Source: a virus
Taxonomy: Duplodnaviria; Heunggongvirae; Uroviricota; Caudoviricetes
Virus record (IMG/VR): IMGVR_UViG_2713896798_000010
Location: 1-55,663 of that record
DNA length: 55,663 bases
Strand: one strand, 5' to 3'
Part shown: piece by piece, positions 9,001 through 12,000 of the stretch
Layout of the letters: each line of letters starts with the position of its first letter
Position numbering within the stretch: the stretch's first letter is position 1
Position numbers: made by a program

Positions 9001-12000
9001 TGACCGCGACTGGTGCAGCCGAACGCATCCATCTTCAGCAGGTTGCGTCCGTAGCGCAGTATGGCTTCCGGGTCTTCCACCAGTTCCGTGGAGGTCTGCC
9101 AGCCGTTCTGTGGGTCGGTGTAATTCACCTCCACCGCCGTGTGCCGGTCCTTCAGGGCACTGAAGCTGTAGCGGAATCCCACGCCGTTATCATCCACCAC
9201 CACATCGCTGTTGGTGTACGGCCACACCACATCCGACGGGCGGTCCTGAACGAACGTCAGCGTCTGGCCGTTCCATACCGGCATACAGCGCATCGCCGAG
9301 CAGAAATCACTGAGAACGTCCCACGCCTTACGCTGTTGTGACAGGTACGCATTAAACGTCATCCGCGGTTCTGTGCCCCCGAAGCCATCCGTGACACGCT
9401 GGTCACAGTACTGCCCGATGGCATACAGCGCCCATTTGTCCACGTCCGCGGCCCCCAGGCGTTTCCCCATCCCGTAGCGCGGGTGGGTCAGCATGTCCCA
9501 CAGGCACCAGGCCGGGTTGTTGCTGTATGCCGGTTTCAGGCTGCCGTCCCAGATGCCGCTGTACGTGCGTTTTTCCGGGTCATAGTTTGACGGCACCTGG
9601 ATGATGCGACCTCGGATATGGTAGTTCACCGTCATCTGCTGACCGCCAAACTGCTCCGCATCCACCTGCAGCCCCACAATCGCCGTGTTCGGGTAGCACT
9701 GTTTCACATCGATGATTTCGGTGTATGACGACCAGAGCGTCTTATTCTGCAGCTGGTCCGAGGTGCTGTCCGCCGTCTCCCTGACCATCCGGATGTTAAA
9801 GGGGCGGGGAGGCAGATTATCCAGAATCACCGAAGCGAGGAACTGTGAGGTGGTCTTGCCGTTAATGGTGACATCCTTTTCCGTCACCCAGTTACCGTTA
9901 CGCTGCAGCTGAATCAGCAGGCGGACGGATGCCGGGTTACGGTCACCCTGTGAGGTGGTCTGCACCAGTGACTGCACCCCGAAGGTAACCCGCAGGCGGT
10001 CAATGTTCGCGGACGTAATGGTGCGCGTCACCGGCTTTGCCTTCGTCACTTCCACGCCCAGTGCGGTTTCAGAGCCGGATGACTCAAAACCTTCCGGCGG
10101 TGTCTGCTCCTGCTCCCCGGCGCGCCAGACCGCTGTCACACCATGTATCACAGGATTACCGTCCGTGTCCGTCAGCGGGGTTTTGTTCACCAGAATACTC
10201 TGCAGCCCCTTCACCGGACCTTCCACCGGTCCCTCACCGATGGCATCAATCACGCTCATCATCTGCGTGGACTTAAGATTGTCCTTTGCCTCAACCGGCG
10301 TGTGCGCCTTGCCGCCACCTTTACCCATAATGTTCCTCTCAATTGGTATTATTAATCGCAGTGATAGGATATTGCACAGCTATTGCGCGATATCATCAGA
10401 ACGCTGTTTGTTACCCTGTAACCAGCAAGCTCAGTCTGTTAACGGAATTAATGAGGGTTTTATGAAATGTAAAATCATTGCTGCCATTGCCATGCTGACA
10501 GCAGCATCATGCGGATACGCAGCAGAACAGGAAGTCCCAATGAACCTTGTCAGTGCTGACGGAAAAGAAGTCAGCATTGGAAAAATAACCATTCAGGAGA
10601 CCCCCTACGGTCTGCTGTTCACACCAGCCCTTCACTCTCTGTCTGAAGGCATTCATGGTTTTCATGTGCACGAAAAAGGAAATTGCGCCCCGGCACTGAA
10701 AGACGGAAAACCGGTCGCAGCATTATCGGCTGGCGGTCACTTTGACCCGAAAAACACCGGCAAACATCTTGGCCCCTGGTCTCCGGATGGACACCTGGGC
10801 GACCTCCCTGCGCTGTTCGTGACGCATGACGGAAAAGCGAACTACCCGGTCCTGGCCCCGAGACTGAACTCATTAAAAGAGATTAAAGGGCGTTCTCTCA
10901 TGCTTCATGCTGGCGGTGATAACCATCATGACCATCCGGAGCCCCTGGGCGGTGGTGGTGCGAGAATGGCCTGCGGCATCATTCAATAATCAGTCAGGTA
11001 AGGGGCGGGCCCCTTACCTTTATTCCTCAGGACGATAAATCCTTTCTCCCTGAAAAGAACGGCACATCCTCCCTCTCTGAGTTAATGTTTTTGTCGTGAC
11101 ATAAGAATAATTCCTTACACTCAATCTTCGTAACGCTCCCGCAGTTCCGCAACTCTGCGGGATTTTTTTATTCTTTTTACCCCTGCCGCCCGATAACCAC
11201 CACCTTCCCGTCACCGCCTTCATCACGGGTACTGATGTCCTGGGAGATTCGTCGTGAACCAACCAGCATTTCACCGTAAGGCACCGGCATCGGGTTACCC
11301 TGGGCAATCATGTTGTCCAGTGACGAAAAATACGTGTTCTGTCTGCCGTTATCCGTTGCGCGGTAATCCGGTGTTTTTGCCTTCGGGGCCAGCATCTGTG
11401 CCACACCACCCAGTATCATGCTGGCACCCAGTGAAAACAGCATCGTGGTGGCAGAAAAACCGCCGGCACTCAGCGCTGCACCCCAGGCTGCCATCGATGC
11501 TCCGGCCGTGAAGAAAGAGCCCACGATGGCTGCCGCCCCCAGCACAATCTGCAGTCCACCTTTTCCGGCCCCGGCCAGTCGCGGCACAATATGGATGACC
11601 GCCCCCTCACCCAGAGGTTCGTGAAGACGGGCGTACACCGCCTCCGGTGCCGTGTCCTCACCGCGAATACGTATCTGGTACCAGCCTTCGTTCATCTGAC
11701 GGCGGAATCCCGGCACCTGTAACGACAGCGCCCGGATGGCTTCCGCTGCCGTGTTCACATACAGGCTGAGGCGGCGGCCAAATCGTTGTAAATCCCCGTG
11801 AAGGCAGATACGTGCCAGTGGCGGTGACGCCAGGCTGAATGCGTTCGTCGTTGCCATTTTTCGGAATACCTCTCCCGTTTACTCAGTTGTTCAGGCAGAT
11901 GGTGAAGCAGCTCACCGTTGCCGCAGTATATGGCGGCATGATTGGCCACCGATGCGCCAAAGCAGCACAGCAGGATATCGCCAGGCTGTGCGGAAGGCAG

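Follow-up and report, generated by a model that had tools for sequence, protein, structure and literature searches.

Does a superoxide dismutase gene that lies among the tail genes of a prophage own both of the terminators that follow it? The case is that of sodC in the window, the 55,663-nt virus sequence (Caudoviricetes) IMGVR_UViG_2713896798_000010, positions 1 to 55,663, in which the gene is transcribed against the tail operon between the minus-strand genes I and J. A sequence-only reading had described it as a moron, an independently expressed lysogenic-conversion cassette likely to contribute oxidative-stress resistance, with two plus-strand terminators of its own. We consider it likely that a known sodC-F1 cassette of enterohaemorrhagic Escherichia coli (EHEC) replaced the J-proximal part of the I-J gap, including the promoter of a small RNA (sRNA) gene of the PasB/EcOnc22-24 family, and left the sRNA body and its terminator behind.

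The two terminators differ in origin

Homologues of 10200..11300 were collected by Megablast against 5426 complete E. coli genomes. The whole cassette stretch was present in 547 of these, including O157:H7, O121 and O103 strains, where the gene is always annotated as sodC and its neighbours as 'tail assembly protein' and 'tail tip protein J', and it was also found in two phage genomes converting for Shiga toxin (Stx) 2a. Many Stx1/Stx2c phages and other prophages matched only both ends of the query. Pairwise alignment with one such sodC-less I-J gap, that of a Stx2c phage (locus L002), gave the cassette borders: the two sequences are homologous up to the J start codon (10328) and again from 11074 onward, and the cassette is therefore 10329..11073, 745 bp. 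It stands in place of ~137 bp, the J-proximal part of a sodC-less gap of 235-245 bp; the corresponding I-J spacing in lambda is 60 bp. GC content at third codon positions is 0.51 in sodC compared to 0.71 in J and 0.64 in I, and overall GC within the cassette is 40-53%, with 40% in the spacer upstream of the gene.

Both sites downstream of sodC, at 10996..11026 and 11138..11170, were confirmed as stable plus-strand hairpins with T-runs, at the positions that had been claimed. Terminator 1 has a 10-bp GC-rich stem (10996..11019) with the loop CGGG, followed by TTTATT (-17.4 kcal/mol, z = -3.4); in terminator 2, TTTTTTT comes after a stem of 8 bp that lies within 11137..11162 (-14.4 kcal/mol, z = -3.7). 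In each case 0 of 200 dinucleotide shuffles was as stable, and neither hairpin has a T-run on the minus strand. A consensus scan of 10200..11400 found four terminator-like sites compared to 1.3 ± 1.2 in shuffles. The ownership of the two hairpins is another matter. The proximal one lies in cassette DNA and can be called the gene's own, whereas the distal one belongs to an sRNA module that is also present in sodC-less prophages, and for it the earlier attribution fails. On these alignments, terminator 1 only is the cassette's own, and terminator 2 is the predicted end of a separate PasB/EcOnc22-24-family module.

The terminator-2 loop (window 11145-11156) occurs in two variants, TTCCGCAACT and TTCCTGTCCGTGAGCA, each found in both sodC-carrying and sodC-less prophages (compared with prophage Sp10 of EHEC strain Sakai and with L002). 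The presence of both variants in both contexts indicates recombination within the sRNA/I region between prophages with and without sodC.

The distal module belongs to the PasB/EcOnc22-24 family

Searched alone, the stretch 11074..11180 was found at 3401 places in 1414 E. coli genomes, including the non-EHEC strains ATCC 25922 and CE10; the sodC-type junction was present in only 528 of these genomes. In the six sodC-less loci examined, the module always adjoins the stop codon of I, and the records have no annotated feature at this place; among the sodC-less prophages none was seen without the 11074..11170 module. TTCACA-N16-TATAAT or TAATAAT precedes the module in most of the sodC-less loci examined; the copies in Sakai prophages Sp15, Sp14 and Sp11 retain only an AATAAT -10. 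At the other end, the stem CCCGCAG/CTGCGGG was unvaried in 9/9 copies, with 6-7 T after it. Promoter, body and terminator in the sodC-less gaps together are the predicted anatomy of an sRNA gene of ~100 nt. RNAalifold, applied to nine family members, returned the terminator helix only, with zero covariation because the stem never varies, and structure thus adds nothing beyond sequence conservation.

We then asked how the module relates to named sRNAs, using a covariance model trained on PasB of enteropathogenic E. coli (EPEC) E2348/69, EcOnc22 of Sakai Sp15 and three more family members, none of them from the subgroup of the window copy. The model matched 11072..11170 (+) over positions 1-104 of 104 (79.9 bits, E = 6e-12), and the next matches in the 55.6-kb window were insignificant (E = 0.37 and 0.61). 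The conserved single-stranded motif AATCTTC is present in the window module.

PasB of E2348/69 (NC_011601.1 1466343..1466261, minus strand, 83 nt) falls in the I-J gap of prophage PP6, where its end (1466261) and that of I (1466255) are 6 nt apart. Its northern probe AATCCCGCAGTGATCGCGGAGCT is the complement of terminator 2 in PasB-type copies, and the reverse complement of the probe (AGCTCCGCGATCACTGCGGGATT) spans the terminator-2 hairpin in these copies. EcOnc22, EcOnc23 and EcOnc24 map to the I-J gaps of Sakai Sp15, Sp14 and Sp11. The published EcOnc22-24 peak coordinates (2014 Sakai) are shifted by +128 to +137 bp relative to NC_002695.2, as calibrated on AgvB; after this shift the peaks fall on the sRNA body. 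The assignment was confirmed by reads from cross-linking, ligation and sequencing of hybrids (CLASH), as reads assigned to EcOnc22/23/24 start with GCCTGAAAAATAACTCCATAACGTTAATCTTCA, the exact Sp15 sequence. Northern blots of both PasB and EcOnc22 show an RNA of ~83-85 nt that accumulates in an Hfq-dependent manner; EcOnc22 ran at ~85 nt and was destabilised without Hfq.

The window element shares with PasB and EcOnc22/23/24 the I-J gap, the orientation antisense to the tail genes, the end 6 nt from the I stop (in the window, module end 11170 and stop codon 11177), the terminator stem and the AATCTTC motif. It differs from them in having sodC cassette DNA in place of the TATAAT promoter, and its 5' half belongs to a subgroup that has diverged from PasB. 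By these sequence criteria, PasB, EcOnc22-24 and the window element appear to be one family occupying the I-J slot. No homologue of PasB in EHEC is noted in the table of Pearl Mizrahi, and the accessible part of Zhu et al. describes EPEC and EHEC as mostly without PasB and draws no link to EcOnc22-24; as far as that text extends, the equivalence of PasB, EcOnc22-24 and the present element seems to be stated in neither source.

Identity with Esr41 was considered for the distal element and rejected: Esr41 lies in SpLE1 (Rfam RF02676) and has no match in the window at threshold. Rfam searches of 10250..11250 at the gathering threshold and at E ≤ 5 yielded sub-threshold chance matches only, such as STnc400 (23 bits, gathering 80) and anti-hemB (13.6 bits, gathering 49.5).

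The window copy of the sRNA gene lacks its promoter

Homology with the promoter-bearing copies starts at CTCTG, at about the expected transcription start. Upstream of this point, the sequence at the sRNA promoter position of the window is ...GGCACATCCTCCCTCTCTG, and the -10 position reads ATCCTC rather than TATAAT (0/6), as it does in Sakai Sp10. A lenient promoter scan of 10985..11110 found a single 7/12 match, inside the module. Of the Hfq peaks listed by Tree et al., none falls downstream of sodC in Sp10, and the CLASH supplement, which has no entry for ECs1989 or ECs1988, is uninformative here. Most likely, the window copy is transcriptionally orphaned, as predicted from the missing promoter, and we file it as a promoter-less family member rather than a proven active one. 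Its most likely remaining role would be that of a back-up terminator only.

A second reading, which we regard as unlikely, is that the cassette took over the PasB/EcOnc22-family body and terminator as a distal 3' untranslated region (3'UTR). Transcripts reading through terminator 1 would end at terminator 2, and processing by RNase E would release an Hfq-binding sRNA whose level tracks sodC-F expression. 3'UTR-derived Hfq sRNAs are an established class, and the reading gains from the imperfect U-tract of terminator 1 (UUUAUU, compared to seven U in terminator 2) and from the sRNA body, AATCTTC included, being undecayed in all sodC-carrying copies examined. Recent recombination with sodC-less prophages, to which the loop variants found in both contexts point, would also explain the absence of decay, however, and no Hfq peak from cross-linking followed by cDNA analysis (CRAC) and no CLASH hybrid is on record for this position or for ECs1989. 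If the reading were true, the insertion of a moron would have turned a primary sRNA gene into a 3'UTR-derived one, and a gene for defence against oxidative stress would be tied to a prophage sRNA regulon.

We give very little credence to a third reading, in which a weak promoter, either internal or borne by the cassette, still drives the sRNA copy as a gene of its own. The 7/12 match mentioned above (TTAATG-N15-AAGAAT, 11082..11108) could be taken for such a promoter, but it is also present in promoter-bearing copies and so is no replacement, a transcript from it would be only about 55-60 nt long, and at the true -10 position the score is 0/6, with nothing returned by the standard scan. It is just as improbable that the hairpins are tandem terminators that arrived together with sodC: both are plus-strand hairpins with a T-run downstream of the gene and have no coding sequence between them, yet that idea is already refuted by the sodC-less loci, where 11074..11170 recurs almost base for base in the I-J gap with its own promoter. 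The stretch is also spread ~2.7 times as widely as the sodC junction, and it matches PasB/EcOnc22.

The sodC-F1 gene is intact and already characterised

The earlier description of the gene itself was borne out. The open reading frame (ORF) 10462..10989 lies opposite to its minus-strand flanks, and its product matches the Pfam domain Sod_Cu (PF00080, curated cut-off 28.9 bits) with 111.9 bits (E = 3.9e-32) over profile positions 3-133 of 133. Matches in the PDB (E = 1e-56 to 9e-63) were to the bacterial Cu,Zn superoxide dismutases (SODs) of Haemophilus and Yersinia, Salmonella SodCI and E. coli SodC. The Cu ligands (H68, H70, H93, H149) and the Zn ligands (H93, H102, H111, D114) are all present within the conserved motifs HGFHVHE, GGHFDP, GKHLG, DGHLGD, LHAGGDN and GGGARMACG, as are the active-site R168 and the disulfide pair C75-C171. 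The N-terminus carries a hydrophobic export signal with a lipobox-like AAS-C17. The reading frame runs from the ATG at 10462 to a stop codon at 10987-10989, and a Shine-Dalgarno sequence, GAGGG, lies five bases 5' of the ATG.

The protein is 100% identical to ECs_1989 of Sakai prophage Sp10, which has the same I / sodC / J arrangement. The Sp10 gap, measured from the stop of I to the start of J, is NC_002695.2 1963484..1964335, minus strand. Nucleotide 335 of sodC is T, encoding Leu112, which makes it the sodC-F1 allele as named by D'Orazio et al. (PMC2569942). The gene is predicted from its sequence to encode an intact periplasmic Cu,Zn superoxide dismutase, and this is published for the identical protein. 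EDL933 carries SodC-F1/SodC-F2 in CP-933R/V. Compared to the SodC-F1 locus of Sakai Sp10, the window has the same downstream sequence except for the terminator-2 loop, for which it carries the short variant also found in O121 strains; the surrounding tail genes are 92-97% identical to those of Sp10.

For expression, activity, localisation and protection against H2O2 we draw on the literature. In the lysogen, expression of the prophage sodC copies was observed in exponential phase, in stationary phase and anaerobically, and a 299-bp fragment upstream of the sodC ATG drives lacZ independently of RpoS (PMC2569942). SodC-F1 is a highly active dimer with 19,380 U/mg, resistant to EDTA and proteinase K, with soluble periplasmic and lipid-anchored forms; a relative enrichment of the protein was seen in bacteria taken back out of Caco-2 cells, and sodC-F deletion reduced survival in 250 μM H2O2 (PMC2569942). 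The same report thus answers in the negative whether the gene might be unexpressed or inactive, and it covers for the identical protein both the independent expression and the oxidative-stress resistance that had been proposed from the sequence. The cassette is an already characterised lysogenic-conversion gene of EHEC prophages, with no novelty in that respect.

Within the cassette, a hexamer scan gave a candidate sodC promoter at 10343..10370 (+), TTGGTA-N16-TAGGAT with TG at -15/-14 (8-9/12 matches). An extended -10, TGgTATTAT at 10344..10352 (+), is an alternative, overlapping candidate. Transcription of sodC is predicted to begin near 10358-10378. A PhoP-box-like half site upstream of sodC (TGTTTG, ~10405) matched by eye in one half only and was dropped.

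The J ribosome-binding site of the window (GAGAGGAACATT-ATG at 10329-10340, minus strand, with GAGAGG at 10335..10340) is made of cassette DNA, not of DNA common with sodC-less phages, and the acquisition of sodC has therefore also altered the translation-initiation region of J. This site resembles the J leader of Salmonella prophage Fels-1 (L011 3350-3370).

The I-J slot in relatives

Comparison with the sodC prophages of EHEC and Salmonella, suggested along with the original description, gave protein identities to the window SodC of 100% for Sp10, 60.5% for Fels-1 and 58.8% for Gifsy-2. In Fels-1, sodCIII (STM0924) likewise lies between I and J and points against the tail operon. Its stop codon is only 53 nt away from that of I, with no PasB-like module, and its upstream region is different and holds a minus-strand hairpin; the J leader beside the cassette is visibly similar to that of the window. 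This similarity hints at a common ancestry of the J-proximal junctions. Gifsy-2 sodCI (STM1044), the virulence-associated SOD, is likewise a prophage-borne dimeric-type Cu,Zn-SOD gene antisense to the tail operon, but in another slot, flanked by a lom-like gene/M and by L instead of by I and J. It is known to be regulated by PhoPQ.

Other small elements were observed in the gaps of sodC-less prophages. A hairpin CAGGCA[T/C]CC-loop-GG[A/G]TGCCTG lies beside the J start codon in several of them (L002 1670-1700, L012 1538-1566, L009 on the minus strand, and others) and is followed on the tail-operon strand by TTGTTTTT, which gives it the look of a terminator between I and J. The copies show one compensatory change of T:A to C:G and one intermediate mismatch. 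This hairpin is absent from the window, where the sodC cassette replaces it. In the gap of E. coli FHI_NMBU_10 (L006 1182-1605), the PasB-like gene is preceded, in tandem, by a second unit unrelated to it, comprising a repeated promoter-like stretch and then a hairpin CTCCCG...TGCGGGAG with TTTTTT. The gaps of ATCC 25922 and N24 (L003/L008 1267-1609) have a different plus-strand hairpin with a T-run, AAACCCCGGTATC..GATACCGGGGTTTTCTTTC. The I-J slot appears to be a hot spot for insertions the size of an sRNA.

Layout of the locus and other RNA elements of the window

The genome closest to the window is that of O157:H7 Balcarce_24.2 (L001, 99.7% identical), from which RefSeq coordinates were transferred (Table 1). 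In that record J is annotated "phage tail tip protein". The ORF of I extends over 11177..11857 (-), and its RefSeq start is equivalent to 11758. Two minus-strand ORFs in the gap, of 41 aa (11027..11152) and 95 aa (11020..11307), have no annotation in the matching RefSeq records; the same holds for a 40-aa ORF at 10343..10465.

Table 1. Features of the I-J region in window coordinates.
Feature	Position	Strand	Basis
J, tail tip/host-specificity gene	6852..10328	-	1158-aa ORF, seven J-domain Pfam matches
sodC cassette (moron), 745 bp	10329..11073	+	Alignment with a sodC-less gap
sodC-F1 coding sequence, 175 aa	10462..10989 (stop included)	+	Pfam, PDB, identity to ECs_1989
Terminator 1	10996..11026	+	Hairpin and T-run inside cassette-specific DNA
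Promoter-less PasB/EcOnc22-24-family sRNA module	11072..11170	+	Covariance model, alignments
Terminator 2, end of sRNA module	11138..11170	+	Stem CCCGCAG/CTGCGGG, 7-U tail
I, tail assembly gene	11177..11758	-	Pfam Lambda_tail_I; RefSeq coordinates transferred from L001
Stretch specific to the window's sRNA subgroup			GTGACATAAGAATAATTCCTTACACTC

In Balcarce_24.2 (L001 3654-6336), the prophage end beside the tail fibre genes adjoins a truncated ompW, IS1 and a 'protein kinase' gene, and trpA-yciGFE lies further out; judged from this genome, the attachment site is probably in ompW. Elsewhere in the window, two sRNA genes form a convergent dyad, AgvB, an anti-GcvB sponge, at 35667-35728 (+; 96.5 bits) and STnc100 at 35729-35919 (-; 144.7 bits). 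The same arrangement is present in Sakai Sp10, which suggests that the window is an Sp10-like prophage. Rfam matches at 39074-39275 (-) to C4 antisense RNA (78.8 bits), isrK (74.4 bits) and the c4 a1/b1 target element (49.8 bits) look like an RNA switch of the P1/P7 or IsrK/anti-Q type within a lambdoid prophage. A lambda cIII thermoregulator element at 48965-49023 (+; 88.5 bits) marks the early-left region of the prophage.

Discussion

The events we favour would run as follows. The 745-bp block carries a putative weak promoter region of sigma-70 type, a Shine-Dalgarno sequence, a gene for a Cu,Zn-SOD that has an export/lipoprotein signal, and a single intrinsic terminator. Because it points against the late tail operon, the lysogen can transcribe it at a time when the late genes are silent, and its enzyme is exported to the periplasm, in part anchored by lipid, and dismutates superoxide there. 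The gap that the cassette entered would not have been empty, having already held an sRNA gene of the PasB/EcOnc22-24 family. The cassette would have displaced the J-proximal ~137 bp, sRNA promoter included, while the sRNA body and its strong terminator stayed; terminator 2, thus left over, would halt transcripts that read through from sodC before they extend into I in antisense.

Several points weigh against this account. The direction of the replacement is one that we infer, and the comparison could be read either way, with the cassette inserted into an older gap or lost and replaced in the sodC-less forms. The U-tract of terminator 1 is interrupted, and some read-through into the sRNA module is plausible. 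That no EcOnc was called in Sp10 argues only weakly for a silent copy, given peak-calling filters and multi-mapping reads. Finally, the sodC promoter was placed by weak matches alone, because the standard, stricter scan of 10200..11400 found no promoter with at least 9/12 consensus matches.

The moron concept of lambdoid phages goes back to Juhala et al. 2000 (as cited in PMC4104026), and the window cassette shows the traits expected of one: I and J are closer together in relatives, it has its own terminator, and its base composition deviates. Like typical morons, it is an extra gene between genes that are adjacent in relatives, with a putative promoter region and a terminator and with expression from the prophage. 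Unlike them, it would have displaced part of a small cargo already present, the sRNA gene, instead of entering a clean junction, and it supplies the ribosome-binding site for the downstream tail gene J.

For the lambdoid prophages of E. coli, these comparisons describe the I-J gap as a recurrent slot for small cargo, holding an sRNA alone, two sRNA-like units in tandem, or sodC with an sRNA remnant. The two terminators after sodC should not be annotated as one unit, as the distal one is that of a beheaded sRNA gene. This distinction matters both for counting sRNA copies per strain and for sodC-F deletions in phenotype tests.

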